A DNA stretch of 64,000 bases, from positions 3,855-67,854 of the forward strand of contig CAZUWR010000001.1 in NCBI GenBank assembly GCA_964624415.1, in the 5' to 3' direction. Shown piece by piece: positions 8,256 through 50,846 of the stretch (positions are counted from its first letter, which is position 1; every line of letters starts with the position of its first letter). The translations under genes were made by a program, and so were the position numbers. This stretch comes from an uncultured Bdellovibrionales bacterium (GTDB taxonomy: Bacteria; Patescibacteriota; Minisyncoccia; Moranbacterales; UBA1568). The notes below the pieces were generated by a model. The model was not told the origin of the DNA, did not search any database, and saw nothing but the letters and a program-made list of their open reading frames with translations.

Positions 8256-8306
8256 GAATTTTTCAGAACCACATGCGTACTCGCATCGGTCTTGAAAAAT
8301 TACTTG
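8256..8306. repeat. copy R1 of an approximately 50-nt imperfect-palindrome hairpin element
   Basis: TTTTTCAGAACC-ACATGCG-TACT-CGCAT-CGGTCTTGAAAAA; near-identical copy at 50794..50846 with compensatory changes. Confidence 0.4.
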
Positions 8307-8350
8307 AACATATTTTCTGACACACTTATACGAATAATAATTGTATTTTT

Positions 8351-9331
8351 ATGAAACTTTTAGTCACGGGCGGAGCGGGATTTATCGGGTCCAATTTCAT
8401 CCACTATATCCTCAAGAAATATCCCGAGTACAGCGTGGTCAATCTGGATGCTTTGACGTATGCAGGCAATCCGGAAAACGTGCGGGAGTGGGAAGGTGAC
8501 CCGCGGTATACTTTCGTTAAGGGGGATATTTGCGATGCAGAGCTTGTGGAAAAATTGGTGCAAGGTGTCGATGCTATCGTACACTTTGCTGCCGAGTCGC
8601 ATGTCGATCGCTCTATCTTGGATGCGCATTCATTCGTGCAGACCAATGTGATTGGAACGCAAACGCTTTTGGATGCCGCTCTGCACAATGACAAGAAGCG
8701 TTTTCATCATGTCTCGACCGACGAGGTCTTCGGTGCGCTCAAACCAGAAGATGAGCCGTTTTCAGAGAAGACACCCTATGACCCGCGCAGCCCGTACAGC
8801 GCTTCGAAGGCCGGATCCGATCATCTGGTGCGGGCGTATTTCCACACCCACGGACTACCGGTGACGATTTCCAATTGTTCCAATAATTATGGCCCGTATC
8901 ATTTTCCGGAAAAGCTGATACCACTGGCAATTACTAATCTAATGGAAGGGAAGCAGGTGCCGGTCTATGGCGACGGGATGCAGGTGCGCGATTGGCTTTT
9001 TGTCGAGGATCACTGCCGTGCCATCGATTTGATCGTGCATCAGGGGGCGCTCGGTGAGACCTACTGTGTGGGTGGGGCATCGGAGCGCGCCAATATCGAT
9101 ATCGTGAAGCAGCTGCTCAAGCTTATGGGCAAGGATGAAACGAGTATTGAGTATGTGACCGACCGGCTCGGGCATGATCGGCGCTATGCTATCGATTTTT
9201 CAAAAATCAAAAAAGAACTCGGATGGGAGCCGACCGTGACCCTCGAAGATGGACTCAAGCAGACCGTTGAGTGGTTTACAGAGAACGAAGGCTGGTGGCA
9301 GCGCATCAAGTCGGGGGAGTATAGAAAATAA
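8351..9331 (+). CDS. rfbB: dTDP-glucose 4,6-dehydratase
   Basis: MKLLVTGGAGFIGSNF Rossmann N-terminus; YxxxK catalytic dyad of the SDR family; 326 aa. Confidence 0.9.
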   Translation: MKLLVTGGAGFIGSNFIHYILKKYPEYSVVNLDALTYAGNPENVREWEGDPRYTFVKGDICDAELVEKLVQGVDAIVHFAAESHVDRSILDAHSFVQTNVIGTQTLLDAALHNDKKRFHHVSTDEVFGALKPEDEPFSEKTPYDPRSPYSASKAGSDHLVRAYFHTHGLPVTISNCSNNYGPYHFPEKLIPLAITNLMEGKQVPVYGDGMQVRDWLFVEDHCRAIDLIVHQGALGETYCVGGASERANIDIVKQLLKLMGKDETSIEYVTDRLGHDRRYAIDFSKIKKELGWEPTVTLEDGLKQTVEWFTENEGWWQRIKSGEYRK

Positions 9332-9340
9332 TGAAATAGT

Positions 9341-9829
9341 ATGCCTGATAAAAATACGGTAGTGTTACTCGAGAAAACATACCAAACAATGGTAAAGAAT
9401 AGCGAAGGAACGAAAATGTTCAACTCTCTTTTTGTTCAAACTAAAGAAACAGGGATGGTTCAGGATATTCTTCAGGACGGAATGTATTCGTGTGCGTTTT
9501 TTGTGAGTACGCTTCTTGTTATGTTTCGTGTTATTGATGAACCTTGCACGACAGTAAACTCATTACAGAAAAAAATTATTCAAGGTAAGCAAAAGTTTTA
9601 CCAAATTTCTCAGCCTGAATGTGGTGATATTGTTTTTTGGGAAGAGATTACTTTTGAGGATGGATCAAAAAACAAGCATGTCGGGCTTGCTCTCAATGCA
9701 CAAGAGGCAGTATCAACCAATTTTAGGGAAAAAAAGGTTTCTAAACATCATATAACCTTTGGAATGGATAAAGAGGGTAATCCAAAAAGAAAGATTATTG
9801 AAATGTATCGGATAAAATTTGAATCATAA
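9341..9829 (+). CDS. hypothetical protein, possible NlpC/P60-superfamily (papain-fold Cys/His) hydrolase
   Basis: AT-rich gene wedged between rmlB and rmlD; pattern YSCAFFVS ... GDIVFWEE ... HVGLAL matches the Cys ... GDLVFF ... HVGIY arrangement of NlpC/P60 enzymes; no signal peptide. Confidence 0.35.
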   Translation: MPDKNTVVLLEKTYQTMVKNSEGTKMFNSLFVQTKETGMVQDILQDGMYSCAFFVSTLLVMFRVIDEPCTTVNSLQKKIIQGKQKFYQISQPECGDIVFWEEITFEDGSKNKHVGLALNAQEAVSTNFREKKVSKHHITFGMDKEGNPKRKIIEMYRIKFES

Positions 9830-9835
9830 AAGACT

Positions 9836-10717
9836 ATGATTCAAAAAGTGTTGATTATAGGTGCACAGGGGATGCTCGGACAGGAATTGGTCCGGGTGTT
9901 TTCCGCTGACTTGCGGTATGAGGTGCACGGATGGGACAAAGATGAAATCGATGTGACGGATTTTGTTTCCGCGGAGGAGCAGATTCGCGCGCTCGGCCCG
10001 AGCATTATCCTCAATGCCGTGGCGTATAACGCTGTGGATGCATGCGAGGAAAATGATGAGGAATATGCCAAAGCGATGCTGCTCAATGCTGATGCGCCCA
10101 AGTTCTTGGCAGGCCTGTCCCGGGATATCGGAGCGATATTTGTGCACTATTCGACGGACTATGTTTTTGGCGGCAGTGAGGCGGGAGAAAACAACAAACA
10201 GGGCTTTGATGAAAGTATCGAGCCGATACCGGTGTGTCGGTACGCGGTCAGCAAACGCGAAGGGGAGAAACAAGTGCAGGCAGTGGGCGGAAAGCATTAT
10301 ATCATCCGTCTCTCGAAACTCTTCGGGAAACCAGCCTTGTCCGCAGCGGGTAAAAAGAGCTTCTTTGATGTGATGCTCGTGGCAGGCAAGACGAAGACGC
10401 AGGTCAGTGTGGTGGATGATGAAATGAGTTGTTTTACCTATGCGCCGGATCTGGCTCAAGCAAGCAAAGAACTCGTCGAATCGAGCGATGCGTATGGTGT
10501 GTATCATTTGATCAATGAGTCTCCGGTCACGTGGTTTGAAGGCGTGAAGGAACTGTATAAGCAGGCCGGAATCGCTACCGAGGTCATCCCTGTGACCAGC
10601 GATGCTTTCCCTCGCCCTGCCAAGCGCCCGACTTTTTCGGTGCTGCGCAATACTAAACGCCCACTTCTGCGTTCATATGAAAAAGCTTTGAAAGAGTTCT
10701 TACAGAAAATAGTCTAA
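9836..10717 (+). CDS. rfbD: dTDP-4-dehydrorhamnose reductase
   Basis: 293 aa; VLIIGAQGMLG N-terminus and YAxSK motif typical of RmlD. Confidence 0.85.
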   Translation: MIQKVLIIGAQGMLGQELVRVFSADLRYEVHGWDKDEIDVTDFVSAEEQIRALGPSIILNAVAYNAVDACEENDEEYAKAMLLNADAPKFLAGLSRDIGAIFVHYSTDYVFGGSEAGENNKQGFDESIEPIPVCRYAVSKREGEKQVQAVGGKHYIIRLSKLFGKPALSAAGKKSFFDVMLVAGKTKTQVSVVDDEMSCFTYAPDLAQASKELVESSDAYGVYHLINESPVTWFEGVKELYKQAGIATEVIPVTSDAFPRPAKRPTFSVLRNTKRPLLRSYEKALKEFLQKIV

Positions 10718-10722
10718 AAGAA

Positions 10723-10757
10723 AGGCCTCTTGGAAATTACCGAAGAGGCCTTTTTTT
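10723..10757. terminator. bidirectional intrinsic terminator shared by rmlD and the convergent sigma factor gene
   Basis: 9-bp stem AGGCCTCTT/AAGAGGCCT with an A run before and a T7 run after. Confidence 0.6.
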
Positions 10758-11640
10758 ACAGCAGATCACTGTATTGGTATCCTAATTCTTGAATTTTTTC
10801 CTGCATTAAAGCGAGTGCGGAATTTATTTTTTGGCGGATACTTTCACCAGAAACAGCATATATTTCCCCAATTTCAGCGTAGGTATGTTTGGAGTAAGTG
10901 TTCAATCCAAACTTTCGACATATCATCTCACGTATATTGGCATCGAATGTCGAGAGTACGTGATTGAGAAGAGTGGTTCTGAGTTCTTGTTTGTCGTTTA
11001 TGTCAGCGCCGATTACCTGTGTTTCTCTCCATTCACCATACTCTGATGAATGCATCAAAAGAGCGTCAAAAGATATCGCATCTTGTAAACATTTGAGAGT
11101 AAGAAGGTTTTGAACCCTATCAGCAGTCATTTTAGCAGAATCAGCCGCAGAATCTTTGTGATTCTTTGCTGCCTGTTCGTTAAGGTATTGAGCTATCTCT
11201 TCATTTGAGACATTTTCTTTGACTCTTTCAAGATAATTGCGCGCTTTAGCAGCTCTGCTTATTTGCAAAAATAAATCATGAGGGACTCCTATGAGGTTTG
11301 ATTGTTTTGCAGTGTCGCAACCGATAGCATCGCGTATCCACCATGTCGCGTAGGTGGCGAAACTAACTTCTTTTTGAGGATCGAATTTTTCTACTGCATT
11401 GATGAGTCCTAGAACACCCATCTGCCAGAGGTCATCTGCTTCAAGTAATCCTCCTTGTGTAGCCCTTTGGTATTTTGTAGTGTACCATATCACTGGTTTA
11501 TTGATGAGTCCGAGATTGGAAACAATCATTTTTTGAAACGCTTTTACATCTCCTTGTTGCGCCTGAATGCAAAGTTCGGTCTGTTCTTCTTGGTTGAGAT
11601 AAAACTTCTTTTTTGTAGCGCGTCTTTTAACGTTACTCAT
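10756..11640 (-). CDS. RNA polymerase sigma factor, sigma-70 family (short, RpoD-like regions 2-4)
   Basis: region 2.3/2.4 YATWWIRDAIG and region 4.2 helix-turn-helix TYAEIGEIYAVSGESIRQ; 294 aa with no region 1.1. Confidence 0.8.
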   Translation of the reverse strand: MSNVKRRATKKKFYLNQEEQTELCIQAQQGDVKAFQKMIVSNLGLINKPVIWYTTKYQRATQGGLLEADDLWQMGVLGLINAVEKFDPQKEVSFATYATWWIRDAIGCDTAKQSNLIGVPHDLFLQISRAAKARNYLERVKENVSNEEIAQYLNEQAAKNHKDSAADSAKMTADRVQNLLTLKCLQDAISFDALLMHSSEYGEWRETQVIGADINDKQELRTTLLNHVLSTFDANIREMICRKFGLNTYSKHTYAEIGEIYAVSGESIRQKINSALALMQEKIQELGYQYSDLL

Positions 11641-11782
11641 AACAATACTCCTTACGAGGTTGTATTTGGAAAGGTTCTGATGTTTTTCGGTTTAGAGTGT
11701 TGAGACCTCATAGACCTTAAAAGCGGTTTAAGTATACCATTTTTCGAAATCGTCTTCAAGGCGTGTCGAAGGCAGAAAAAAG

Positions 11783-11791
11783 TGGTATACT
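11783..11791 (+). promoter_or_regulatory. extended -10 promoter (TGgTATACT) upstream of glyA
   Basis: TGn-TATACT about 55 nt upstream of the glyA start. Confidence 0.35.
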
Positions 11792-11845
11792 GGTTTTGTA
11801 TTCAGGCAATCAGGTCAGTAATTCGTGAGAAATAAGAGTAAAAGT

Positions 11846-13090
11846 ATGTTTACCTATACGGCGATAAAAAAAGAGGATAAAGAGGTATTGAAGGCTATCA
11901 AGGGGGAAATGAAGCGTCAGGAAGAGGGATTGGAGATGATTGCTTCGGAGAATTATGCTTCGGAAGCGGTGATTGAGGCGCTCGGGACGGTTTTGACCAA
12001 TAAATACGCCGAAGGATATCCAGGAAAGCGCTACTATGGCGGACAGGAGTTTACGGATGCGGTGGAAATCTTGGCTATACAGCGAGCGAAGAAGCTCTTC
12101 GGTGCCGAGCATGCCAATGTGCAGCCACTATCGGGTGCGGCAGCCAATATCGCTGCGTATATGGCCGTGCTCGAGCCGGGGGATACGGTGCTCGGGATGG
12201 ATCTTTCGCACGGCGGACACTTGACCCACGGGCATCCGGTGACCTCGATGTCGAAGATCTACAATTTTGTGCGGTACAAAACCGAAGCGGACGGGACTAT
12301 CGATTACAAAAAACTCGAGGCGCTCGCGATGGAAGTGAAACCCAAGCTTATCTTGGCGGGATTTTCTTCGTACACAAGACAGTTGGACTACAAGAAGTTC
12401 GCCGCTATCGGCAAGAAAGTGAAAGCGATCACGATGATGGATATGGCGCATATCGCCGGTTTGGTGGCGGGAAAGGTCGTCGATAATCCGGTCGAGTATT
12501 TCGACATCGTGACCACGACGACACACAAGACACTGCGCGGACCTCGCGGAGGAATGATTTTGTGTCGGGAAAAATTTGCTCAAGCTATCGATAAATCGGT
12601 TTTCCCAGGATTTCAGGGCGGACCGCATATGAATATCATTGCCGCCAAAGCAATCGCTTTCGGAGAGGCTTTGCAGAAGGAATTCAAAAGCTATGCCAAA
12701 CAGACGCTGAAAAATGCCAAAACACTGGAGAATGAGCTGCGTAAGCGCGGATACGAAATCGCTTTTGGCGGGACGGAAAACCATATGGTAGTAGTGGATG
12801 TGTTTGCGACACTCGGTATCGGCGGCAAAGAAGCGCAGCATATTCTGGACGAAATCGGCATCTCGGTGAATAAAAATATGATTCCCGATGATACGCGCAG
12901 CCCGTTTGATCCGAGTGGTTTGCGTATCGGTGTGCCGGCGCTCACGACGCGCGGTATGAAGGAGCGGGAAGTGAAGCTTATCGTGCAGTGGATGGATGAA
13001 GCGCTTCGCGGTCGTGAGGTCAAGAAGGTTTCCCGCGCTTTGCATCGGGAGGTCAAAGATCTGTGCGCGCGATTTCCCCTGTATGCGTAA
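11846..13090 (+). CDS. glyA: serine hydroxymethyltransferase
   Basis: SHGGHLTHG pyridoxal-phosphate motif; start placed at MFTYT (the track ORF begins 7 codons earlier at 11825). Confidence 0.9.
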   Translation: MFTYTAIKKEDKEVLKAIKGEMKRQEEGLEMIASENYASEAVIEALGTVLTNKYAEGYPGKRYYGGQEFTDAVEILAIQRAKKLFGAEHANVQPLSGAAANIAAYMAVLEPGDTVLGMDLSHGGHLTHGHPVTSMSKIYNFVRYKTEADGTIDYKKLEALAMEVKPKLILAGFSSYTRQLDYKKFAAIGKKVKAITMMDMAHIAGLVAGKVVDNPVEYFDIVTTTTHKTLRGPRGGMILCREKFAQAIDKSVFPGFQGGPHMNIIAAKAIAFGEALQKEFKSYAKQTLKNAKTLENELRKRGYEIAFGGTENHMVVVDVFATLGIGGKEAQHILDEIGISVNKNMIPDDTRSPFDPSGLRIGVPALTTRGMKEREVKLIVQWMDEALRGREVKKVSRALHREVKDLCARFPLYA

Positions 13091-13141
13091 TCGATATCCT
13101 TGGTAGTATAAATAAAATTAATCAATTCTCATTGCGTTTTT

Positions 13142-13396
13142 ATGAATCAGGATATACAAAGTATACTTATTTTCACAGCATTTTTCATTTTTTTGAACGC
13201 AGTTTTTTTCGGTGGATTTATGAAGGGGAAGTTTGCCGACAAAGCTTATGATTGGAGAATGAAGCGACATTTGATAGTAGATGGCGTGAGCAAAGAAGAA
13301 TATGTTCGCAGTATAAAGAAAATCATCCCTATTTTGTTGTTTTTTGGAAATATGTTATACGCATTGTTCATCGTCGGTGTTTTATGGAGAGTTTAA
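13142..13396 (+). CDS. hypothetical small membrane protein (2 TM)
   Basis: 84 aa with two hydrophobic helices; no homology recognised. Confidence 0.3.
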   Translation: MNQDIQSILIFTAFFIFLNAVFFGGFMKGKFADKAYDWRMKRHLIVDGVSKEEYVRSIKKIIPILLFFGNMLYALFIVGVLWRV

Positions 13397-13556
13397 GTTA
13401 TCGTTGTAGCTTTTTATCAAGTCATATTTGTCAAAAATGGAAAGAAGTGGTACACTTGTTCCAGTAAGAGACGAGTGAAGACTTTCGTGTTGAATTTGTT
13501 TCTTTTTTGCTTTTAATAAGCAGATTTTACTGTATAACCCCGTTAAGTGATATTTT

Positions 13557-13757
13557 ATGCCGGTACAAAAGCAACACCACACCAAAATGCGTCAAAAGCG
13601 CGGACGAGTCGGCCTGAAGGTTGTGCTCAAAAATACGCAGGAATGCCCGAAATGTAAAGCTCCTGTGCTTTCTCACAAGATGTGCCCGAAATGCGGTACC
13701 TATAAGGGAAAAGAGTTTGTCGATACCCTCAAGAAAGTCGCTCCAAAAAAGAAATAA
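13557..13757 (+). CDS. rpmF: 50S ribosomal protein L32
   Basis: N-terminal basic MPVQKQHHTKMRQKRGR followed by a CPKC...CPKCG zinc ribbon, as in Gram-positive L32. Confidence 0.8.
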   Translation: MPVQKQHHTKMRQKRGRVGLKVVLKNTQECPKCKAPVLSHKMCPKCGTYKGKEFVDTLKKVAPKKK

Positions 13758-13774
13758 CAGTTTTTTAAAATACT

Positions 13775-14305
13775 ATGGCAAATCGTCATCTTCAGAGGTC
13801 GCTGGCTATGCAGTCGCTTTTTGAGTGGGATTTTCAAGGTCAAGACAAGAATCGGACGGAGGAAATCGTGGATCGAAACGTTTTGGAGTTCGCTCTCGGA
13901 CTCGAGGATGCTTCATTTACCAAAAAGCTGGTGCAGGGCGTGATGGATCATCAGGAAGCTATCGATGCGATGATTGTACAGTGTGCCCCCGAGTGGCCTT
14001 TGGATCAGGTGACGGTTATCGATCGCAATATCTTGCGCATTGGCATTTACGAATTGGTGCATGGCAGCTATGACGATGCGCCTCCGAAGGTGGCTATCAA
14101 TGAGGCGATAGAGCTTGCTAAGACGTTCGGCGGGGATAACTCAGCCCGTTTTGTCAATGGCGTGCTCGGGACAGTCTATCGCAATATCGGCGAGCCGCTC
14201 AAGGATGACTCGACGTTCAAGCGGAAAATAGCCAAGGGAAAGAAAATGAAGGAGGAGAAAAAGGAAGAGATTGAAGAAGTTGAAACGAAACCAGTTACCG
14301 AATAA
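13775..14305 (+). CDS. nusB: transcription antitermination factor NusB with K/E-rich C-terminal tail
   Basis: conserved NusB core (ARFVNGVLG) plus a low-complexity KKMKEEKKEE tail. Confidence 0.8.
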   Translation: MANRHLQRSLAMQSLFEWDFQGQDKNRTEEIVDRNVLEFALGLEDASFTKKLVQGVMDHQEAIDAMIVQCAPEWPLDQVTVIDRNILRIGIYELVHGSYDDAPPKVAINEAIELAKTFGGDNSARFVNGVLGTVYRNIGEPLKDDSTFKRKIAKGKKMKEEKKEEIEEVETKPVTE

Positions 14306-14309
14306 CAGT

Positions 14310-15002
14310 ATGGATATGTTTAATGCGGACAATGTAGCAAAAAAATTGGGCATCCTTATTCATAATAAGGATCTTTTTCAGATGGCGGTCACGCATCGTT
14401 CGTATCTGAATGAGCATCGTGATCACCCTCTTAATCACAATGAACGGCTTGAATTCTTGGGTGATGCGGTTTTGGAATTGATCGTAACGGAGTATCTGTA
14501 TCACAACTATCCGAATCCGGAAGGGGAATTGACCAGTTGGCGGGCGGCGCTGGTGAACGGCGAAATGCTGGCCGTGGTGGCGCGCAGTATCGGCGTGGAG
14601 GAGTTTTTGATGATGAGCAAGGGCGAGGCCAAAGATACGGGACGAGCGAGGCAATACCTTTTGGCCAATGCGATGGAGGCGATTATCGGGGCCATCTATT
14701 TGGATCAGGGGTATGACGCTGCCAAAGACTTTATCACCAAGACGGTCTTAATTCACCTTGATGAAGTATTGAAGAGCAAGTCCTATGCCGATCCCAAGAG
14801 CCGTTTCCAAGAAGAGGCTCAGGAGCGTATGGGCATCACGCCCAATTATCACGTGTTGCGCGAGAAGGGTCCCGATCACGACAAGCATTTCGTTTCCGGG
14901 GCTTTCCTTGGGGAAGAATTGATTGCGGAAGGCGAGGGTCAATCCAAGCAAGAGGCGCAACGAGAGGCTGCCAAGAACGCCCTGGAGAAGAAGGGGTGGT
15001 AG
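14310..15002 (+). CDS. rnc: ribonuclease III
   Basis: RNase III signature ERLEFLGDAVLEL plus a C-terminal dsRBD; start taken at the ATG 5 nt after the nusB stop (the track begins at 14271, overlapping nusB). Confidence 0.85.
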   Translation: MDMFNADNVAKKLGILIHNKDLFQMAVTHRSYLNEHRDHPLNHNERLEFLGDAVLELIVTEYLYHNYPNPEGELTSWRAALVNGEMLAVVARSIGVEEFLMMSKGEAKDTGRARQYLLANAMEAIIGAIYLDQGYDAAKDFITKTVLIHLDEVLKSKSYADPKSRFQEEAQERMGITPNYHVLREKGPDHDKHFVSGAFLGEELIAEGEGQSKQEAQREAAKNALEKKGW

Positions 15003-15052
15003 GGGTTTGGTGAAGTAGTATTTTTAACAACCAAAGTGAGAGAGGTGGGAAA

Positions 15053-15292
15053 ATGAAACAAGATGTGATGGCGTTTTTGTATTATGCGATTGGCAGGATA
15101 TTCTTTCAGAAGAAGGTGTATCCACCGCAAATGGGCACTATCGACTATTATATAGCCAATTTTCGAGAGGCTTATATCAACTGGCTCCGAAGCGAACTCG
15201 AGCGAGAAGACCCTGTTTTTAGGGAGCAGCAAGAAATGAGGGTCTTTGCGAATGCAGTAAAATCCGCGGAGAATCCAAGTAGCGGTAAATAG
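15053..15292 (+). CDS. hypothetical protein
   Basis: 79-aa ORF with a GAGGTGGG SD; no homology recognised. Confidence 0.3.
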   Translation: MKQDVMAFLYYAIGRIFFQKKVYPPQMGTIDYYIANFREAYINWLRSELEREDPVFREQQEMRVFANAVKSAENPSSGK

Positions 15293-15350
15293 CAGTCCAG
15301 TGGATGAATATTACCCTAACTGGAATTGAAAGTAACCTTTACGATTGTAG

Positions 15351-22184: not shown

Positions 22185-22223
22185 GAAAGGTATAATTTCG
22201 ATAGCATATAAAGAATTACGCGT

Positions 22224-26943: not shown

Positions 26944-27000
26944 AATGGAATAAAACTTTCTCATTTGGCACTCAAATGAAAAAGTTTTAAAGAAGAATGT

Positions 27001-27522
27001 ATGCAAACAAAAGTACAGAAAGAAGAATTGATTGCTCGTATCGTCGAGAAAATCACCGCTTCGAAAGCTATGGTGTTTGCTGATTTCAAGGGATTGACCG
27101 TGAAGGAAGTGACAACGCTCAAGCGAGAGTTGCGCACGACCGGATCCAGTATGGTCGTTCTGAAGAAAACATTACTCAATATCGCTTTGGAAAAGGCTGG
27201 TGTTGAGGTTAATGGTCGCAAATTGCATGGTCAGGTAGCAGTTGCTTTCTCTGCTGACGAGGTATCTGCCGCAAAGGCGGTCGCCAACTTTGCCAAGCCG
27301 TTCAAGGATAAGAAGATTATCGTTGGGGGATCATTGGGAACGAAGGCGTTGTCAGTTGAGGAGGTGAAGGCTTTGGCACTTCTGCCAACGCAAGACGAGA
27401 TGCGCGCCAAGCTCTTGGGAACATTGCAGGCGCCTATTGCCAGCTTTGTCCGCGTATTGGATGGCAATATCAGTGGTTTTGTCCGCGTGTTGCAAGCAGT
27501 TGCTGATAGCAAGACCGCATAG
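27001..27522 (+). CDS. rplJ: 50S ribosomal protein L10
   Basis: 173 aa; conserved L10 N-terminal region. Confidence 0.9.
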   Translation: MQTKVQKEELIARIVEKITASKAMVFADFKGLTVKEVTTLKRELRTTGSSMVVLKKTLLNIALEKAGVEVNGRKLHGQVAVAFSADEVSAAKAVANFAKPFKDKKIIVGGSLGTKALSVEEVKALALLPTQDEMRAKLLGTLQAPIASFVRVLDGNISGFVRVLQAVADSKTA

Positions 27523-27585
27523 CAGGAAGGATTTACGCGTTTGAACGTGGTTTTATAAAGGATAATTTATTGTAAGTATAATCGT

Positions 27586-27987
27586 ATGACTGAAGAGAAA
27601 AAAGACGTAGTAGTGCCGGCAAAGTTCGAGAAGATCGTTGCTGAGATCGAAAAGATGAGCGTGCTTGATTTGTCTGAGCTCGTGAAGGTGCTTGAGGACA
27701 AGTTCGGTGTTAGCGCTGCTGCTCCTGTTATGATGGGTGCTGCTCCTGCTGCTGCCGCTGAAGCCGCTGAAGAGAAGAGCGATTTCGATGTTGAATTGAC
27801 TGCTGCCGGTGCTCAGAAGATTAATGTTATCAAAGCTGTCCGTGAAATCACCGGACTTGGTTTGAAAGAAGCTAAGGACCTTGTTGACGCTGCTCCAAAG
27901 GTAATCAAGGAGAAGGTTGCTAAGACCGATGCTGAAACCATGAAGAAGAAGTTGGAAGAAGCTGGTGCTACCGTAGTATTGAAATAG
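27586..27987 (+). CDS. rplL: 50S ribosomal protein L7/L12
   Basis: Ala-rich hinge plus a conserved C-terminal domain ([24 protein letters not shown]). Confidence 0.9.
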
Positions 27988-41734: not shown

Positions 41735-41843
41735 ATCATGAGTTTTTTGTAAATATTCAGAGAAGAGACTCTGAAACGACCTGCCCGAAATGCAACGCAT
41801 AACTTTGCAGGCGGGGTTCAGAATAACATCCTCATTTCAAAAA

Positions 41844-43592: not shown

Positions 43593-44201
43593 TTATCGTT
43601 TGAATACCCAGAGTTTGTACCCGATGAAGTTCCAGGTCAGGACGAGTATGGAAGCGGTGGCGGAAGCGATGGAAGCCCAGGCTTTGTCGGTGATATTTCC
43701 GGGAGAGGTGACGATGTTGATCATTATCCAGGTGATACCGGCATTGATAACGAGGCCGACGATACTGACGAGCCAGAATTGGAGCACTTCTTTGCTCTTC
43801 GCCTCGCCTTGTTTTTCAAATGACCAGTACTTGTTCCAGATAAAGCTATTGATGATAGCAGCATTGACCGAGACGATTTTGAATCCGAGTATCGCGTTTC
43901 CGGTCGCGATATCCGTCATATAGATGAAAACATTGAAAATACCCAAATCAATAATGGTATTGGTCACGCCGATGATGCCGAATTTGCTGAGTTGGAAAAA
44001 AAACCTGAGGCGGTTGATGCGAGAGGCGATGAAATACGCGAGACTGATGCCGAGTGTGGCGAGAAGCGCGATGATAAAAACGAAAGCGAGATAGGGGATA
44101 GGAATTTTTGATCCGAGATTGGTGATGATGATAGGAGCTAAAAGTCCGATAAAGGCGCCGTTGATAGCGGCGAATGACAGGTCACGGAGGCGTAGGGTCA
44201 T
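43593..44201 (-). CDS. GtrA-family membrane protein
   Basis: FGIIGVTNTIIDLGIFNVF GtrA-like motif; 4-6 TM helices. Confidence 0.45.
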   Translation of the reverse strand: MTLRLRDLSFAAINGAFIGLLAPIIITNLGSKIPIPYLAFVFIIALLATLGISLAYFIASRINRLRFFFQLSKFGIIGVTNTIIDLGIFNVFIYMTDIATGNAILGFKIVSVNAAIINSFIWNKYWSFEKQGEAKSKEVLQFWLVSIVGLVINAGITWIMINIVTSPGNITDKAWASIASATASILVLTWNFIGYKLWVFKR

Positions 44202-44259
44202 AGCGGTGAGGGTAAGTGTGATGAGTTAGGGATGAGGATGAGAGTGATGTGCTGTATTA

Positions 44260-45075
44260 CTATTCGCTTTTTTTCATTTCATTTTCGATTTCTTCAAGAT
44301 CCTTGACCCACTCATCGACGACCGCCTGCTTGTCTTCATCAGGAGCAGCTTCTTTGGCTTTGGATTTCTTGGCTGGTTTGGCTTTTTCTTCTGTTTCTTC
44401 TGGGTCGGTGGCTTCCGTATGAGTCGGCGCATCATCGTGCAAGTCTTCTTTCCACGCATGCATATCTTGCGGAGCAGCGTGCTCTCGAGGAGGCATCCAA
44501 TGCGACATTTTTTGGCTGCCTTTCTGGAGGATGTTTTCGATCGATGCCCAGGTGGCCTCGGTATCGCGCGGGAAGACGATAGCGACTTCATCGCCCGGCT
44601 CGCCCTTGAAATATGTGACGGATGCGAGAAGGACTTTGTATGGCCGTCCATCAGCGAGGATGCAGTAGTTGCCGTTTTCATCCTGACTGATGATACCCAA
44701 AGCGTGCTTGCGCTCGACTGGGCCGATCTGCTTGTAGATGAAAGAACCTTCGGGAGTGATGGTCAATTTGAGTACATCGCCTTCGATGAGTTTTGATTTG
44801 GAAGCGTAGTTGGCAGGGACAGGGTATTGCTTGCCATCGGTACCGAGCATGATCTGCCCGTCAAACATGCCTTCAACGACGGTGCCATCGGTCACTTCTT
44901 CTACCTTTCGTTTGCGACCGACTTTCTTCTTGCCTTCAATCTGAAGCAGCATGGCCTTGGCGCCCTGTATGGTTTTTTCCGCGCTGTTGATCATATCGCG
45001 CAGAGCCTGAATTTTTTGAGTAGCCTCTTTTTCTTTGGTTTCCGCGTCTTGAGGCGCATCGTTGTGTTGTATCAT
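44260..45075 (-). CDS. hypothetical protein with N-terminal coiled coil and acidic/Lys-rich C-terminus
   Basis: 271 aa; no family recognised; preceded by a minus-strand TGCTATACT promoter element at about 45150. Confidence 0.45.
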   Translation of the reverse strand: MIQHNDAPQDAETKEKEATQKIQALRDMINSAEKTIQGAKAMLLQIEGKKKVGRKRKVEEVTDGTVVEGMFDGQIMLGTDGKQYPVPANYASKSKLIEGDVLKLTITPEGSFIYKQIGPVERKHALGIISQDENGNYCILADGRPYKVLLASVTYFKGEPGDEVAIVFPRDTEATWASIENILQKGSQKMSHWMPPREHAAPQDMHAWKEDLHDDAPTHTEATDPEETEEKAKPAKKSKAKEAAPDEDKQAVVDEWVKDLEEIENEMKKSE

Positions 45076-45247
45076 CTTGTTTGCGGCGAATCACTTTTCA
45101 TTTCTCTAAAGTATGAAAAGCGTCTGCTTTTTTATTTTTATTTTACATATTCAGTATAGCATATTCTCTCTCAAGCGAGCAAGAGAATTTTAGTATAGAG
45201 TTTGCGACGGTAAATTTTGTAATGTATAGTGAAGTTAATTATTTATT

Positions 45248-47218
45248 ATGAATTATATGTATACACGAAGAGTATTATTGGCAGGCATCGGAGTATGTGT
45301 AGGTCTGTTTATTCTGGCGTGGTTTTGGGTAGCTCGATCGATATTTTTTCGCTCTACCGATATGACTATTCCTACGCAGAACATCTCTTCAGTTCACGTA
45401 CCTTCCTCAACGAAGGATGTAGAAAATATAACGGTGCCTGTTGGTGAATCCTCTGCATACGCACCTCCGGAAATGAAAACCTTCACAGAGTTTTCCAAGG
45501 ACGATATCCGTAAGGGGCAAGTGACATGGCAGGAACCTCAGGATATGGGTGATTTGGGGTGGACCTCTCACGATGTGTATACTGGAAAATATCAGAGTAA
45601 GAATGGGTATGCTTACTCCGGGGGTGTTAAATATTTGAAAGTTGGTACAGTGAAAGAGGGGATGTACACCGGGTCTGAAGTCATCGTCGTTTTTTCTTGG
45701 CTCTACACCGGAGATTTTCCAAGGGGTGAGTCGCCTGATATTCAGCATTACTTACGAAAAGATGGTAAGGTAACGCTGCTTACACATGCTGCTACGGCTA
45801 ATGGAGTCGAAGTTCCTTTGCCGACTTCAGATGTTAAGGCTGATGATTCCTCTCAAGATGATGATGCAAAAGCATTAATCCTGAAAGCTTCGAATGAAGT
45901 TGTTGATAATGAAACAAGAATTGAGGATTTAGCTCTGTATCCAACCGAATTCCAGGGTAGGAATAGCCGTGAAACATTTGTTAATAATGGGTATGCTGAT
46001 AGAGCGGTTTTTTCAAGTAAGGGTCTTAAGCTAGCGTTTGAAAGTTTGGAATTTGGACAGGTGTGGATGACGGATACGTCGTTCAAGGGAGAAATCCGCA
46101 CAGAGTTAAATAGTTATCAGGGTCGCGTGTATGATTCTAAGCCAGATAAAGATGGTAAAGACACTTTTAAAAGAGTAAAGAAGTATTACGATCCAGTTGT
46201 ATCGGGTGGATTTTATCTGAAACGTCCGGATGGTATTATGGAGGCGTACCGTTTGAAGTTCGATATTTTCGATATATTTGATCGACAAGGTGTACTCCAG
46301 GCGACATGGAATGATGGCTCAAAGAACACAACTTCGTATGAAGAATATCCGGGAGGATGTGGTATGACGGAGTATGTGTACGATAAGACAAACAGTGTCA
46401 GTATTAAAAAGGATTTAGTGATAATCGGAAAGACGGAGCAAGGAGATCTTTTGTATGGGTATAGGGAAAGCAATTCTGCATTGAAAAAGTATTTTGATGA
46501 AACATACTTACCGTCCCTTGGCAGGCAATCAAGTGCGGATTTGGGCATGGACAGAAATCAGCTTTGGAAAGAATTTCTGCAGAAGCGCCCAATAGTGTTG
46601 TGGCAGGATTCTTTTGGCCGCTTACTGGCGTTCTATAATACTGATACCATACCTTTGGCTGAATGCGGTAAACCGGTAGTATATCTGTACCCGGAAAAGA
46701 GTGCGGATGTTTCGGTAAGAGTCTTTCCGAGCGAAGGTGTGAGTGTTTCTGATCCTGCTTACAATGATGGTTGGGATGTTGTGGCGCAGCCAGATGGTAC
46801 CCTTATGAATAAGATGGATGGAAAAAATTACCCCTATCTATTTTGGGAAGGCGGAAGTGATACGCTTTACCAGACTCCTGAACAAGGATTTGTGGCTGCA
46901 AAAGAAGATCTGAGTGTATTTTTTGATGAGAAATTAAGCCAGCTTGGACTCTCAGCTAAAGAATCATCTGATTTCAAAGAATTTTGGATTCCGAAGATGA
47001 CCGAGAAAAGTAAGCCTTACTATTTCATTACTTTTCTTTCTCGTGCACAAATTGATAGATTGGCTCCTCTTGCAATAAATCCGAAGCCAGATACGATTAT
47101 CCGTGTCATGATGGATTATGAAGGACTGGATTCGTGGAAGGCTGTGCCGGGTTATGCTATCAAAACACCGAAGAGAGAAGGGTTTACCGCGGTTGAATGG
47201 GGGGGAAGAATGAAATAA
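45248..47218 (+). CDS. hypothetical large membrane-anchored extracytoplasmic protein
   Basis: 656 aa with a single N-terminal TM helix; 8 nt upstream of the Memo/CapA-like gene (likely an operon). Confidence 0.5.
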   Translation: MNYMYTRRVLLAGIGVCVGLFILAWFWVARSIFFRSTDMTIPTQNISSVHVPSSTKDVENITVPVGESSAYAPPEMKTFTEFSKDDIRKGQVTWQEPQDMGDLGWTSHDVYTGKYQSKNGYAYSGGVKYLKVGTVKEGMYTGSEVIVVFSWLYTGDFPRGESPDIQHYLRKDGKVTLLTHAATANGVEVPLPTSDVKADDSSQDDDAKALILKASNEVVDNETRIEDLALYPTEFQGRNSRETFVNNGYADRAVFSSKGLKLAFESLEFGQVWMTDTSFKGEIRTELNSYQGRVYDSKPDKDGKDTFKRVKKYYDPVVSGGFYLKRPDGIMEAYRLKFDIFDIFDRQGVLQATWNDGSKNTTSYEEYPGGCGMTEYVYDKTNSVSIKKDLVIIGKTEQGDLLYGYRESNSALKKYFDETYLPSLGRQSSADLGMDRNQLWKEFLQKRPIVLWQDSFGRLLAFYNTDTIPLAECGKPVVYLYPEKSADVSVRVFPSEGVSVSDPAYNDGWDVVAQPDGTLMNKMDGKNYPYLFWEGGSDTLYQTPEQGFVAAKEDLSVFFDEKLSQLGLSAKESSDFKEFWIPKMTEKSKPYYFITFLSRAQIDRLAPLAINPKPDTIIRVMMDYEGLDSWKAVPGYAIKTPKREGFTAVEWGGRMK

Positions 47219-47225
47219 AGCGGAT

Positions 47226-48836
47226 ATGAAAATATTGAGTGACCGCAAAATCATATACTATCTGTTGTTGGCTGGTGGCATAATCGCTACCAGCCTTTCG
47301 TACGCTTTTTTGAAAAGTGTTGATATTCAATCAAGCCTTACAAATGGAACGGAAAAAAAGAGCAGTGAACAATCTTTGTCAATCGTTTCTTTTATTACGC
47401 CCCATCATCTCGCTGCTAAAGAGTTTATGCATAAGATTTTTCATGATGTCAGCGATGCGGTCGGAGGTGATTCAATCGATCGTGTTATCTTGATAAGTCC
47501 GAATCATTTTAATATCGGAAAAAGTTGGGTGATCGGTTCTGAAAAAAGTTGGGAGACTCCCTTTGGTATGTTGTATGCGGATGCTGGTATGAGCAGTCAT
47601 CTTAAGGATGGGGTTTTTTTTGGCCAAGATATTTTTGAGCGTGAACATGGGATAAGGAATATCCTACCCTTCGTAAAAGAGTATTTTCCACAGGCTGCTG
47701 TAGTACCATTGGCTTTACGCGATGGATTTTCTGATGAAGGGGTAGATGCATTAGCACAAAGACTTGCACAATTATCAAGTCCGCATACGATCCTCATTGT
47801 TTCAGCTGACTTTTCTCATTACTTAGACTGGAATTTTTCTCGTTTTCATGATGCTAAAGCTAAAGAGATTCTCAGTCGTATGGATATGGATCATATCGGG
47901 TTACTGGACGTGGATTGCGCATCATGTTTGCGTGTCGCTATGCAATATTCAAGAATTCGCCATGCTGATCATTTTCAATTTGTTTCCCGATCGAGTTCTT
48001 TGGAGCTGGCTGGGTCAAATAGAGTCGGCGAAGAAACAAGTCATATAACCGGGTATTTTTCTTCGCAACTATCGCAGTCAGATGATGCATTGGATACAAC
48101 ACGTCTTCTGTTTTCCGGACAAGTCACACCGCAGGCCATGACTGAAAGTGCAAGAAGAATGTTTATGGGTCAAGATTTCAATATTTTTGAACAGGATGGC
48201 AGTATTGTATCGAATGTTTTCGATGACACTTCTTACAACTCGTCTTTGCATGTTTTGCAAAATTATTCACTGATGGATGATAAAGAATTATCTTCCGCAC
48301 GGATAATACACGGAAAACGGTTTGTGTTTGTTGATGCTGATATGCGAATTTCCGATGATGCCTCCGCGCAACGCGTATTGAATGAGGTGAGCGAGGCAAA
48401 ACAGCACAGTGATTTTGTGGTGGCTTTGTGGAGCAAAGATAAACAATCCCGAGGTTCTATGGGAAATGCTGACGCACAAAGGAAGCAGGCTCATGATCTT
48501 ATCGATGCAGGAGCGGATGTTGTGATTGGTTTGCGGGCTCAGAATTTTGAACCGATCGAGATATATAATAATAAAGCGATTTTTTCTTCTTTGGGCTATA
48601 ATGCCTCGCAGTGTAGGCTTTACAATCGTATGTGTGCAGGCGTGCAACTAGGGATAGGTTTTTCTTCGGATGCGATAGAATATGTTCTTATGCCCATTAT
48701 GAAGCAAAAAGATGGGCAAATTGTATTAGCAAAAAGTCCGGAAAGGGATATTATCCTTAAAAAGTTATCGGATACAAGGATCAGTAATTCGATGAAGCAA
48801 TCACTGCAAGAGGGGATGTTTACCTTACATAAATAG
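47226..48836 (+). CDS. Memo-like (AmmeMemoRadiSam protein B family) domain fused to a degenerate CapA/PGA_cap-like domain
   Basis: N-terminal half has Memo motifs (ITPHHLAAKEF, DRVILISPNH, SADFSHY); C-terminal half resembles CapA (LIDAGADVVIG...IFSSLGYN) but lacks the HWG/HHPH metal-binding histidines. Confidence 0.5.
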   Translation: MKILSDRKIIYYLLLAGGIIATSLSYAFLKSVDIQSSLTNGTEKKSSEQSLSIVSFITPHHLAAKEFMHKIFHDVSDAVGGDSIDRVILISPNHFNIGKSWVIGSEKSWETPFGMLYADAGMSSHLKDGVFFGQDIFEREHGIRNILPFVKEYFPQAAVVPLALRDGFSDEGVDALAQRLAQLSSPHTILIVSADFSHYLDWNFSRFHDAKAKEILSRMDMDHIGLLDVDCASCLRVAMQYSRIRHADHFQFVSRSSSLELAGSNRVGEETSHITGYFSSQLSQSDDALDTTRLLFSGQVTPQAMTESARRMFMGQDFNIFEQDGSIVSNVFDDTSYNSSLHVLQNYSLMDDKELSSARIIHGKRFVFVDADMRISDDASAQRVLNEVSEAKQHSDFVVALWSKDKQSRGSMGNADAQRKQAHDLIDAGADVVIGLRAQNFEPIEIYNNKAIFSSLGYNASQCRLYNRMCAGVQLGIGFSSDAIEYVLMPIMKQKDGQIVLAKSPERDIILKKLSDTRISNSMKQSLQEGMFTLHK

Positions 48837-48930
48837 CTTGTTTGGTTATAGTAGTTAAGTGCCCCTCTCAGTTTTTGAGTATAAAAATAGCGGCTCAACA
48901 TACACAATCGTATGTTTCGCCGCACTCATT

Positions 48931-49272
48931 TCAATCTTCGCAGATAGTTCGTTTATTGCATTGTCGCCATTGGAGCACACATTTTTCTAGAACATCCAAA
49001 TAGTGTCGGACACAAATACCCTTACCACCCGATTCCAGGTCTAAAGGATTGCCTCTGGTGACCTGAAAGCTATTATCGTCATCCGGCGTCTCATGACAGA
49101 TGATTTTACCTTTGACTACGACGTAGCAGGCACCGCCGCCCATCATACCAATGTATGGTCCTGGCACCTCGACGGTTTGCCCTGGCGGAATCGCAACATC
49201 TTCGCCGTATCCTACTCTGGTATCAAAGCAGAACGCGATGATTGCATAACCCGTGTTATTTGTGACTTGCAT
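48931..49272 (-). CDS. hypothetical protein
   Basis: 113-aa ORF; no family recognised. Confidence 0.3.
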   Translation of the reverse strand: MQVTNNTGYAIIAFCFDTRVGYGEDVAIPPGQTVEVPGPYIGMMGGGACYVVVKGKIICHETPDDDNSFQVTRGNPLDLESGGKGICVRHYLDVLEKCVLQWRQCNKRTICED

Positions 49273-49502
49273 CTGTATCTTCTCTGAAAATGTCGGTAAC
49301 TTTCCGACAGCGTATTGTAGGACAGTAAGCCTTCGATGTCAATATATGGGGTATAGCGTGTTTCGTTTGACAATAAGGAATGATTGGAGTACACTGGTGA
49401 ATAGAAAAGCCTGTGGGGGCTTTTTAAAAAACCCAAATTTCCATATTTCCGTAAAGTGGCTTATACAAGCATTTTATAGACATATCGGACCCAATACACG
49501 CT

Positions 49503-49691
49503 ATGAGCAACATCCTGAAGTTTATACAAGAAGCGAAAGTCGAGCTGATGAAGGTCACCTGGCCAAACAAGCAGCAGATCATCCAAAGCACGGTGCTGGT
49601 GGTCGGTTTGACCTTTGTGATGGCGGTTTTCCTCGGAGGACTGGACTATGGTTTTGGATATATTCTCAAATCATTTATCACCACAAAGTAG
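49503..49691 (+). CDS. secE: preprotein translocase subunit SecE
   Basis: 62 aa, a single TM helix and conserved KVTWP motif; immediately upstream of nusG. Confidence 0.75.
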   Translation: MSNILKFIQEAKVELMKVTWPNKQQIIQSTVLVVGLTFVMAVFLGGLDYGFGYILKSFITTK

Positions 49692-49748
49692 GACTTTTGA
49701 ATTTGGCACCTAATACATCGGTTTAAACATATTTTTAAATAACATCGT

Positions 49749-50294
49749 ATGGCAAAGCAAACTCAACATCACGGACGCGCCTGGTATGTGCTCCATACCT
49801 ATTCGGGATACGAGGACAATGTGTCCCGCAACCTCAAGCAGCGTATCGAATCTATGGATATGCAGGAGCTCATCTTCGATGTCATCGTCCCGAAGGAGAA
49901 GAAGATCAAGATCAAGGCGGGTAAGCGCACAGTGATCGAGGAGCGCATTTATCCGGGGTATGTGCTGGTGGATATGGTGGTGACGGACGCATCCTGGTAT
50001 GTGGTACGCAATACGCCAAATGTGACCGGTTTCATCGGACTGGGTACGACACCGACACCGGTAGACCCACGAGAAATCGAGCAGCTCAAGAAGCGTATGG
50101 GTGTGGAAGAGCCGAAGTACAAGATGGACGTCAAGCTCAATGATCCTGTCAAAATCACCGAAGGACCGTTCAAGAACTTCGAGGGCAAGATTCAGGAAGT
50201 GGACGAAGAGCGAGGCAAGGTTAAAGTGTTGGTTTCCTTGTTCGGACGTGAGACACCGGTTGAATTGGACTTCCTCCAGATTAAAAAGGTGTAA
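49749..50294 (+). CDS. nusG: transcription termination/antitermination factor NusG
   Basis: NGN domain AWYVLHTYSGYE and a C-terminal KOW domain. Confidence 0.9.
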   Translation: MAKQTQHHGRAWYVLHTYSGYEDNVSRNLKQRIESMDMQELIFDVIVPKEKKIKIKAGKRTVIEERIYPGYVLVDMVVTDASWYVVRNTPNVTGFIGLGTTPTPVDPREIEQLKKRMGVEEPKYKMDVKLNDPVKITEGPFKNFEGKIQEVDEERGKVKVLVSLFGRETPVELDFLQIKKV

Positions 50295-50339
50295 TGACAG
50301 TATTTCAGGTATAATAAGGTTTGCTAAAGAATTAAAGTT

Positions 50340-50765
50340 ATGGCGAAGAAAATCAAGACGATTATCAAGTTGCAAATCCAGGGCGGAAAGGCGAATCCAG
50401 CTCCTCCAGTCGGACCAGCACTCGGTCAGCACGGTCTCAATATCCAGGATTTTTGCGCGAAGTTCAATGACGCGACCCGGGATAAGATGGGCGATGTGAT
50501 TCCTGCAGAAATCACCGTATACGATGATCGCACTTTCACGTTCGTACTCAAGACTCCTCCTGCTGCTGAGCTGCTCAAGAAGGCTGCCAAGGCAACTAAG
50601 GGTGCTGCTAATCCGCTCAAAGAAAAGGTGGGAACGGTTACAACAGAGCAGTTGCGAGAAATCGCGGAGACCAAGATGGAGGATTTGAACGCGAACGATG
50701 TGGATATGGCGATGCGAATCGTCGCCGGAACTGCCCGTTCGATGGGTATTAAGGTAAGCGAGTAG
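50340..50765 (+). CDS. rplK: 50S ribosomal protein L11
   Basis: [33 protein letters not shown]-terminus. Confidence 0.9.
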
Positions 50766-50793
50766 TTTTTGTAAGTAATTTTCTTGTGAAAAA

Positions 50794-50846
50794 GATTTTT
50801 TCATGACCACATGTGTACTCACATCGGTCTGGAAAAAATACTTTTT
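50794..50846. repeat. copy R2 of the approximately 50-nt hairpin element
   Basis: TTTTTTCATGACC-ACATGTG-TACT-CACAT-CGGTCTGGAAAAAA; inner stem differs from R1 by paired substitutions (GCG/CGC to GTG/CAC). Confidence 0.4.

Follow-up and report, generated by a model that had tools for sequence, protein, structure and literature searches.

Three foldback hairpins lie in gene spacers of the window

The DNA analysed here, a 64,000-nt stretch of contig CAZUWR010000001.1 (assembly GCA_964624415.1, positions 3,855 to 67,854 of the forward strand; hereafter the window), carries three long imperfect palindromes, R1, R2 and R3, which lie in the spacers on either side of rmlC and in the spacer between the ribosomal protein genes rplK and rplA. 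R1 and R2 had been described from the sequence alone as a paired hairpin repeat of about 50 nt (the original prediction). Both sequences (8256-8306 and 50794-50846) read as they were given there, and Pfam matches bear out the gene context, with R1 between rmlC and rmlB and R2 between rplK and rplA. The hairpin is real, but the ~50 nt form only the middle of longer palindromes of 78-82 nt. The features of the two regions are as follows.

7438..7469, plus strand: intrinsic terminator of csp, AAAAAACACTCCCC..GGGGGGTGTTTTTT
7469..7497, plus strand: rmlC promoter of sigma-70 type, TTGACG-17-TATACT, directly after the csp terminator
7528..7609, minus strand: R3, a third and more divergent copy, inverted relative to R1 and R2, in the 5′ untranslated region (5′UTR) of rmlC
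7647-8207: rmlC (Pfam), followed by R1 and then rmlB (8351-9331)
8241..8318, plus strand: R1, full palindrome between rmlC and rmlB
50340-50765: rplK (Pfam), after nusG and followed by R2 and then rplA (50943-51632)
50778..50858, plus strand: R2, full palindrome between rplK and the L1 site and rplA
50900..50933, plus strand: conserved hairpin motif, putative L1 autoregulatory (rRNA-mimic) site, GUGGGAGCUUCGUUCGGCGAGGCGUCUGUACCAC, immediately upstream of rplA

Shuffled sequences predict 0.00 occurrences of the 25-nt core ACCACATGYGTACTCRCATCGGTCT in the window, where it is found exactly twice, and R1 and R2 share a core variant that is unique to the window. A covariance model built from the copies of the family scores R1 at 82 bits (E = 2e-16) and R2 at 86.6 bits (E = 1.8e-17); R3, found by an inverted-repeat scan together with the model, scores 74.7 bits (E = 1e-14), and a search of the window with filters off returned no fourth copy. 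R1 folds at -29.8 kcal/mol (z = -7.2) with 30 Watson-Crick pairs, R2 at -32.7 kcal/mol (z = -8.7) and R3 at -34.7 kcal/mol (z = -8.9), and the three hairpins, 78-82 nt in length with 29-39 Watson-Crick pairs, contain no open reading frame (ORF). The compensatory change that had been noted in the inner stem, ATGCG/CGCAT in R1 against ATGTG/CACAT in R2, is confirmed. Furthermore, the outer arms are also compensated, both in GAAUUUUU/AAAAAUUAC (R1) against GAUUUUUU/AAAAAAUAC (R2) and in CAAG/CUUG (R1) against AAAA/UUUU (R2), and R3 has compensated stems of its own, with AGCC/GGCU for GACC/GGUC and GGCG/CGCC for AUGYG/CRCAU.

The hairpins belong to a dispersed family

Orthologues and relatives were taken from JGI metagenome loci, Patescibacteria rplA loci, IMG/VR viral contigs and Logan contigs (labelled L with a number). 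Among metagenome-assembled genomes (MAGs) of Candidatus Moraniibacteriota and other Patescibacteria, the top match to the window RplA is JAQTRS010000001, at 81% identity, which places the window in a bacterium of the candidate phyla radiation. The strict core pattern has no match in 185,579 species genomes (one genome per GTDB species); either the species is unrepresented there or its MAGs are broken at the element. A loose pattern, TTTTTCN{9,13}GTACTCNNNTCGGN{3,6}GAAAAA, which retains only TTTTTC, the GTACTC loop, TCGG and GAAAAA, matches 23 JGI metagenome loci, and 20 of these come from a single metagenome, Ga0172379, whose contigs possibly represent more than one related population. The matches outside it (L091, L096, L102 and the viral L107) have neither a palindrome nor a covariance-model score and were set aside as chance.

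The covariance model finds 23 copies on 20 Ga0172379 contigs at 51-70 bits (one Ga0172379 copy, carrying a 37-nt insertion, reaches only 47.3 bits). By comparison of their flanks the Ga0172379 copies represent 22 distinct sites, only L097 and L105 being orthologous, and a further copy is present in L113, a third lineage. R1 and R2 are thus not an isolated pair produced by local duplication, the outcome on which the original prediction would have fallen, but belong to a dispersed family. Two of the Ga0172379 contigs are syntenic with the window: L099 corresponds to 49366-51499 at 77% nucleotide identity (RplA 86%), and L090 to 6051-8195 at 70% nucleotide identity (RmlC 80%).

The ~50-nt core, GATTTTTTCAAAAGCCATTGGCGTACTCGACTCGGCTGTGAAAAAWTAC, is almost invariant among the Ga0172379 copies and is laid out as GA(T/A)TTTTTC, short stems, a G-TACT-C tetraloop and GAAAAA(A/T)TAC, with fixed bulges such as the extra base in GAAAAAAT-A-C. 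The outer arms vary between subfamilies (A1, GTATTTCCAAYGAGAAAG; A2, ATTTCTCGTGAAAAAG; A3, TTTTCTTGTGAAAAAG; B, AAAAAAGYG..CAAGAATTTTTC; several copies each) and stay self-complementary inside each copy. R1 has arms of the B type (AGAAAATA..CAAGAATTTTTC / GAAAAATTACTTG..TATTTTCT) and R2 arms of the A3 type (ATTTTCTTGTGAAAAAGATTTTTTC / GAAAAAATACTTTTTTAGCAAGAAAAT), while the core of R3, AGCCATTGGCGTACTCGCCTCGGCT, resembles the Ga0172379 consensus and R3 is 83-94% identical to metagenome copies. The element measures 80-90 nt; a long form of ~165 nt, seen in L113 and L092a and partly in L098 and L087, has an additional 22-bp inverted outer layer, AGGACTTACGCGTTTGAAAATA. The outer-arm motif GGACTTACGCGTTTGAAA also matches the window at 22212 and 27529, as single unpaired occurrences that we judged to be chance.

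When 24 distinct copies are aligned on the covariance model, 87.5% of cells are paired, against 50-55% with slid partners, and 10 of the 23 pairs have changed on both sides; 0 of 500 shuffles reached the observed values. As the copies are related by descent, these compensatory counts correspond to a limited number of events. The proposal that the hairpin is kept by compensatory change therefore holds for the family. A dyad operator for a dimeric regulator, one of the functions suggested for R1 and R2, is unlikely, since the arm sequences vary while their pairing is kept. No Rfam family matches the element at the gathering threshold, which in the window a single tRNA alone passes; permissive scans gave sub-threshold matches to long-hairpin miRNA precursors and sRNAs, and blastn against phage and plasmid collections returned nothing meaningful.

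Assemblies themselves are affected by the element. Logan contigs, from independent short-read assemblies, end inside R1 and R2 (L001 starts at 50822, L002 starts at 8277 and L003 ends at 8297), and contig ends in L090 (10940-11115) and L104 (1-250) are perfect fold-back palindromes of ~150 nt centred on a copy, which are assembly artefacts caused by the element. Because short-read assemblies break in this way, absence from MAGs is weaker evidence than intact empty spacers. The element is probably under-represented in MAGs and probably contributes to their fragmentation.

Filled and empty sites among relatives

Intact empty spacers are found at all three positions. The rmlC-rmlB spacer measures 7, 11 and 25 nt in L110, L113 and L114 (RmlC 80-85% identical to the window), against 143 nt with R1 in the window; the csp-rmlC spacer is ~105 nt in the same three loci, against 225 nt with R3; and the rplK-rplA spacer is 72 nt in L004, against 177 nt with R2. 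R3 is missing from L108, L110, L111, L113 and L114. L108, the closest relative found (RmlC 93% identical), lacks both R1 and R3 and has other insertions at both places, among them, at the rmlC-rmlB junction in place of R1, a 59-aa ORF (779-958) with zinc-ribbon-like CxxC...C motifs. The covariance model gave no significant match in 80 related Patescibacteria rplA loci (1.2 Mb), and an inverted-repeat scan of 8 of these 80 loci found no comparable long hairpins.

Other relatives carry the element where the window does not, or carry a different copy at the same place. L113 is without R1 and R3, yet a long-form copy follows its smc stop codon and precedes the terminator of smc itself, where the window has the terminator only. 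In L099 a copy beginning at the rplK stop codon occupies the rplK-rplA spacer, and this copy is closer to R3 and to the consensus of its own genome than to R2, its positional counterpart. The motif GTAAGT(T)AAT flanks R2 on its left side and the L099 copy on its right, a weak hint that the two copies entered this spacer independently. At the R3 position of L090 there is a copy whose loop has taken up a 37-nt GC-rich hairpin, and at the R1 position only a half-element remnant. With spacers of 7-25 nt, a remnant in L090 and an ORF in L108, the rmlC-rmlB junction looks like an insertion hot spot.

The promoter in front of R3 is conserved through these changes. Both hexamers are identical in the window, L090, L110, L111, L113 and L114 (the L108 contig begins at the -10 hexamer and so shows TATACT only), and the rmlC 5′UTRs behind them differ, in the window and its relatives, through insertions. 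The -35 hexamer TTGACG overlaps the U-tract of the csp terminator (TTTTTTTGACGC), and this compact junction of terminator and promoter is kept in the same six sequences over ~20% protein divergence.

Together, a presence that does not track host phylogeny and copies that resemble their genome-mates are the signature of a mobile or converting repeat. The family has reached many intergenic sites of a Moraniibacteriota lineage, and its gain and loss do not depend on the genes beside it. R1, R2 and R3 are thus very probably members of a lineage-specific, mobile family of small non-coding foldback repeats, similar to miniature inverted-repeat transposable elements (MITEs) or repetitive extragenic palindromes (REPs).

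Copies avoid divergent spacers and sit beside unrelated genes

All 22 copies that could be classified, using crude ORF calls, are intergenic: 18 are in tandem spacers, 4 in convergent and none in divergent spacers (P ~0.02-0.04 for 0/22 against a divergent-spacer background of 14-17%). They occupy 3′-flanking positions, intra-operon spacers and 5′UTRs in either orientation. The original prediction had asked whether other copies sit at operon junctions, and the further copies do lie in intergenic tandem or convergent spacers beside housekeeping genes. These flanking genes are unrelated to one another and include rplK/rplA, rmlC/rmlB, sufD/sufS, ppa/tig and genes for a pseudouridine synthase and an ABC-F protein. 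That the hairpins serve specifically to regulate rmlB or rplA in cis is contradicted by at least 22 other sites at unrelated genes in both orientations, and close relatives lack R1, R2 and R3 in the orthologous spacers. The asymmetric loop and bulges are oriented with transcription in 11 copies and against it in 7, and sense-strand mismatches comprise 11 G.U and 13 A.C, with no RNA-sense excess. With orientation mixed and no excess of G.U, nothing indicates a strand-specific RNA function.

These features might be expected of a site recognised at the DNA level, with the core bound as a duplex or cruciform by a nucleoid-associated protein, a dimeric regulator or a DNA-uptake or recombination protein. 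Conservation is much stronger in the core, which has fixed asymmetries, than in the arms; the copies are independent of orientation and have no RNA-sense signal; and proteins of this sort are known to bind REP/BIME and Correia elements (Correia elements and IHF, PMC2649163). We nevertheless consider such a site improbable, as the functionally unrelated flanking genes provide no regulon logic, the compensatory changes show that intrastrand pairing matters and not a fixed duplex sequence, close relatives lack the element and no candidate protein was identified.

The hairpins are not strong terminators

R1, R2 and R3 differ from intrinsic terminators in several respects. A consensus terminator scan called the csp terminator and none of the three hairpins, and canonical terminators are common in the window. 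Since csp has an ordinary intrinsic terminator, R3 is not needed to end csp; the conserved promoter, which places R3 ~30 nt into the rmlC transcript, means that R3 is transcribed within the rmlC 5′UTR; and as the R1 and R2 spacers in relatives consist of 7-25 nt or of the L1 motif only, R1 and R2 lie inside operons. Placed in a 5′UTR (R3) and inside operons (R1 and R2), the three hairpins are not strong terminators, and they do not fit the class of intrinsic terminators, in which a transcription unit ends with a G+C-rich stem of 5-20 bp and, directly behind it, a U-run.

The earlier view that the repeat is not a terminator is thus broadly right, given the scan and these placements, although its argument from U-tracts has limited reach. 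That neither orientation gives a hairpin followed by a U-tract is true only for the boundaries then used: in R2 the A-run is followed by UAC-UUUUUU, and the other strand has UC-UUUUU. In the family, the inner hairpin of subfamily A is followed by UACUUUUUU on one strand and by UCUUUUU on the other, and subfamily B is framed by A6...T6. With U-rich stretches after the inner stem on both strands, partial, orientation-independent termination or 3′-end stabilisation is plausible. Like bidirectional intrinsic terminators, the element has dyad symmetry with A-rich 5′ and T-rich 3′ flanks, lies after stop codons and avoids divergent spacers; unlike them, it has a very long, A/U-rich stem with a U-run that is interrupted or paired into the stem, and its copies share sequence, which independent terminators do not.

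The main rival to a mobile repeat is an RNA element selected by the host, whether as a site for processing by RNase III, as a hairpin that stabilises mRNA or as a leaky terminator or attenuator acting in both directions. The hairpin would set the ratio of neighbouring cistrons, and its copies would spread and persist because they are useful. This is possible, though we think it unlikely. It would accommodate the compensatory changes that maintain pairing, the 0/22 copies in divergent spacers, the sequences UACUUUUUU and UCUUUUU behind the inner hairpin of subfamily A and the A6...T6 frame of B, the filling of the same two spacers in two species, and the presence of RNase III in the window:

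14310..15002, plus strand: rnc, RNase III with a double-stranded RNA-binding domain (Ribonucleas_3_3, 1.5e-41; dsrm, 1.2e-15)

Against it, close relatives do without the element, their rmlC-rmlB spacers being 7-25 nt long and their rplK-rplA spacers having the L1 motif only. Ordinary terminators exist, and the L113 copy lies upstream of the gene's own terminator; R3 in a 5′UTR and R1 and R2 in operons argue against efficient termination. Furthermore, a structural role needs no near-identity over ~50 nt across 20 copies, and orientation is random relative to transcription with no G.U bias on the sense strand.

R2 is distinct from the putative L1 site

Autoregulation by ribosomal protein L1 acts through an rRNA-like mRNA leader, and the position of R2 had led to the suggestion that R2 is such a leader. 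In 24 of the 30 Patescibacteria loci checked (among L004-L073), a motif of the form GUGGGAG-variable hairpin-CGnnnnACCAC lies 8-10 nt before the rplA ATG. In the window this motif (50900-50933) is separate from R2 and downstream of it, and L004 has the motif (9947-9990) without R2. From its rRNA-like GGGAG/ACC signature and its position, we infer L1 binding for 50900-50933, which is probably the L1 autoregulatory rRNA mimic, located between rplK and rplA rather than upstream of rplK; the GUGGGAG...ACCAC motif has no Rfam match at E <= 10. R2 shares only its genomic neighbourhood with the L1-binding rplKA leader, into which it has inserted upstream of the L1-type motif.

That R2 itself is the L1 mimic can be regarded as refuted and retains next to no probability. 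Only its position between rplK and rplA speaks for it; R2 lacks the motif, the same element flanks rmlC and 22 unrelated sites, and R2 is missing in 80 relatives, whose rplA leaders keep GUGGGAG...ACCAC. A hairpin such as R2 near rplA should therefore not be annotated as an L1 regulatory site.

Neighbouring copies occur as head-to-head pairs

In three of three cases, neighbouring copies consist of one A-type and one B-type copy, arranged head-to-head and 33 nt to 2.1 kb apart:

7528-7609 (minus) with 8241-8318 (plus): R3 and R1, window
2553-2615 (minus) with 4743-4803 (plus): L092
1534-1594 (minus) with 1628-1690 (plus): L100

Each of the three true B-core copies (GACC...GGTC) has a neighbour of the A type. 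Pfam scans covered 62 ORFs of the window (1-52947), at a cut-off of E <= 1e-5 (E <= 1e-3 for ten of them), together with 10 ORFs next to copies in the metagenome; window genes from 53126 to 57774 carry precomputed housekeeping Pfam labels, and coverage of the window ends there.

Paired copies around a gene, such as the inverted R3 and R1 around rmlC, could be taken for integron attC-like recombination sites that delimit cassettes. Imperfect palindromes with conserved bulges downstream of ORFs, as well as the three A-type plus B-type pairs (R3/R1, L092a/b and L100b/a), would fit such sites. The copies are, however, dispersed and of mixed orientation and do not form co-oriented arrays; the core genes that they flank are syntenic in relatives without the element (csp-rmlC-rmlB, rplK-rplA, sufD-sufS); their ends are ATTTC/GAAAT, with no RYYYAAC/GTTRRRY core sites; and there is no integrase among the scanned window ORFs. 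We therefore consider attC-like sites highly improbable. A composite transposon or cassette bounded by paired copies was likewise rejected, since the enclosed genes are syntenic core genes.

Comparison with known repeat families

The element resembles MITEs in several respects. It is small (<300 bp), non-coding and built of inverted repeats (palindromes of 78-82 nt, and in the long form 22-bp arms), it occurs in many dispersed copies (3 in the 64-kb window and 22 sites on 20 contigs of one metagenome), and filled and empty orthologous sites exist at rmlC-rmlB, csp-rmlC, rplK-rplA and the smc 3′ site of L113. An autonomous partner, a transposase gene bounded by the same ends, was not found in the ORFs scanned (window 1-52947 and 10 metagenome flanking ORFs) or among the Pfam labels for 53126-57774.

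REP/BIME, ERIC/IRU, RUP and BOX repeats are likewise imperfect palindromes dispersed between genes, with compensatory changes that maintain the hairpin. They are found 3′ of genes or between cistrons, in both orientations, and serve to stabilise mRNAs, to terminate transcription weakly or to bind proteins. REPs are 20-40 nt long with a 5′ GTAG, are often clustered as BIMEs and are associated with RAYT (HUH Y1) transposases, whereas the present element is 80-90 nt long, A/T-rich, mostly solitary and without GTAG at its ends, and has a GTAC-containing tetraloop. No RAYT or Y1_Tnp match was obtained among the scanned window ORFs.

The Correia elements (Correia repeat enclosed elements, CREE, or NEMIS) of Neisseria are non-coding inverted repeats of ~100-150 bp dispersed in intergenic DNA; they are co-transcribed with their neighbours into long hairpins that are bound or cut by RNase III, and their insertion is strain-polymorphic (PMC2649163). 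The present element is of the same size class and foldback shape, also has a long and a short form, likewise inserts into operons and UTRs, and is likewise present in some relatives and absent from others. The sequences are not similar, however, and it is the centre of the present element that is most conserved, where in CREE it is the terminal repeats. Unlike CREE, the element has no demonstrated TA duplication, IHF site or end-generated promoter, and its host belongs to the Patescibacteria, also known as the candidate phyla radiation (CPR). Membership of the Correia/NEMIS family, which would require sequence homology, the 26-bp terminal repeat and the TA duplication, was rejected, the sequences being unrelated by inspection. 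The likeness is one of function only; in that sense Correia/NEMIS elements are the nearest counterpart, with REP/BIME, ERIC, RUP and BOX also close. The element is a new family of a known kind, foldback MITE- or REP-like, and a member of no named family compared.

Proposed mechanism and consequences for transcripts

We propose that some protein factor moves the element in its folded hairpin form, or acts on that form to homogenise the copies. This would account for the kept pairing, the fixed bulges and the invariant GTAC-containing loop and core. As the spacers that hold R1, R2 and R3 are transcribed, the corresponding mRNAs should contain an A/U-rich hairpin of 30-39 bp, which would most likely be a substrate for RNase III, presumably the product of rnc at 14310-15002, an enzyme expected to cleave RNA hairpins of 35-40 bp. 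An RNase processing site, one of the functions originally suggested, is thus plausible as a consequence of the element, RNase III being encoded in the window. Alternatively, the hairpin may act as a leaky, orientation-independent pause, termination or stability element. In both cases the coupling of rmlC with rmlB and of rplK with rplA would be loosened in part, and such effects on expression would be by-products of insertion and not the reason why the sequence exists.

Several observations weigh against a mobile repeat of this kind. Conservation is greatest at the centre and not at the termini; a classical MITE shows the opposite, and the pattern could indicate a host function that depends on the sequence. 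In two species with a nucleotide divergence of ~25%, the rplK-rplA and csp-rmlC spacers are both filled, possibly because selection has retained the copies over a long time. A terminator-like role would agree with the avoidance of divergent spacers, a statistic that depends on the crude ORF calls, and with the U-rich stretch that follows the inner stem in either orientation. Furthermore, no transposase or other mobilising protein is present in the 62 window ORFs, in the labels for 53126-57774 or in the 10 flanking metagenome ORFs, and the copy flanks that were inspected have no consistent direct repeat, although the A/T-rich palindromic ends would hide a 2-nt duplication.

A bolder and rather doubtful idea is that the invariant asymmetric core, with its G-TACT-C loop and fixed bulges, is the site of a protein that acts on folded single-stranded nucleic acid in CPR bacteria. 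It might be a new type of recombinase or transposase specific for hairpins, or else a host factor for which the portable hairpin serves to split operons or insulate transcription in very compact genomes. Insertion targeted to structure is pointed to by the GC-rich hairpin nested in the L090 loop after GTAC, by the repeated and different insertions in the rmlC 5′UTR and at the rmlC-rmlB junction, and by the head-to-head neighbour pairs of A-type and B-type copies.

CPR/Patescibacteria genomes are small and regarded as repeat-poor. They nevertheless still host proliferating non-coding elements, here in operon spacers and UTRs of rplK-rplA, rml and suf genes. Our literature searches found no MITE- or REP-like repeats described for CPR, Patescibacteria or Moranbacteria; TIGR-Tas arrays were considered and rejected as a match, being tandem guide arrays and not dispersed hairpins. 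By giving the mRNAs of essential genes hairpins of about 30-39 bp, the element provides a natural test case for RNase III processing and read-through, in organisms that are not yet genetically tractable.

Other hairpins and neighbouring genes

A second, unrelated hairpin of 36 nt, GC-rich and of the form CCYGCCYG(C/A)AACGCTWYGCGTAGCRWTKCGGGCRGG, is found at the following sites and has no Rfam match.

L108, 79-114
L090, 781-816
L043, 10724
L025, 7060 (minus strand)
L023, 2847
L116, L118, L119 and L120: viral loci (IMG/VR contigs, 62-66% GC)

It is near-identical across distant Patescibacteria, the L043 and L108 copies being the same although the L043 RplA is only ~52% identical to that of the window. 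In the L090 copy of the repeat it sits in the loop right after GTAC, and in L108 it occupies the rmlC 5′UTR, where the window has R3. A degenerate version, with CTGAAAC/GTTCAGA flanks, lies in the window at ~41769-41826 between a tRNA gene and dnaX.

Another near-perfect A/T-rich hairpin, with a 17-bp stem (TAAAACTTTCTCATTTG/CAAATGAAAAAGTTTTA), lies at 26951-26989 just upstream of rplJ (27001). It falls outside the repeat family (covariance model E = 1.7) and could be an L10 leader or the rpsP terminator. The rplJ-rplL genes (27001-27987) are 23 kb away from nusG-rplK-rplA (50340-51632), so that the usual rplKAJL-rpoBC cluster is split. Downstream of rplA are two ORFs without a Pfam match, followed by genes for a CYTH protein and dCTP deaminase and by thyA, folA and gatB.

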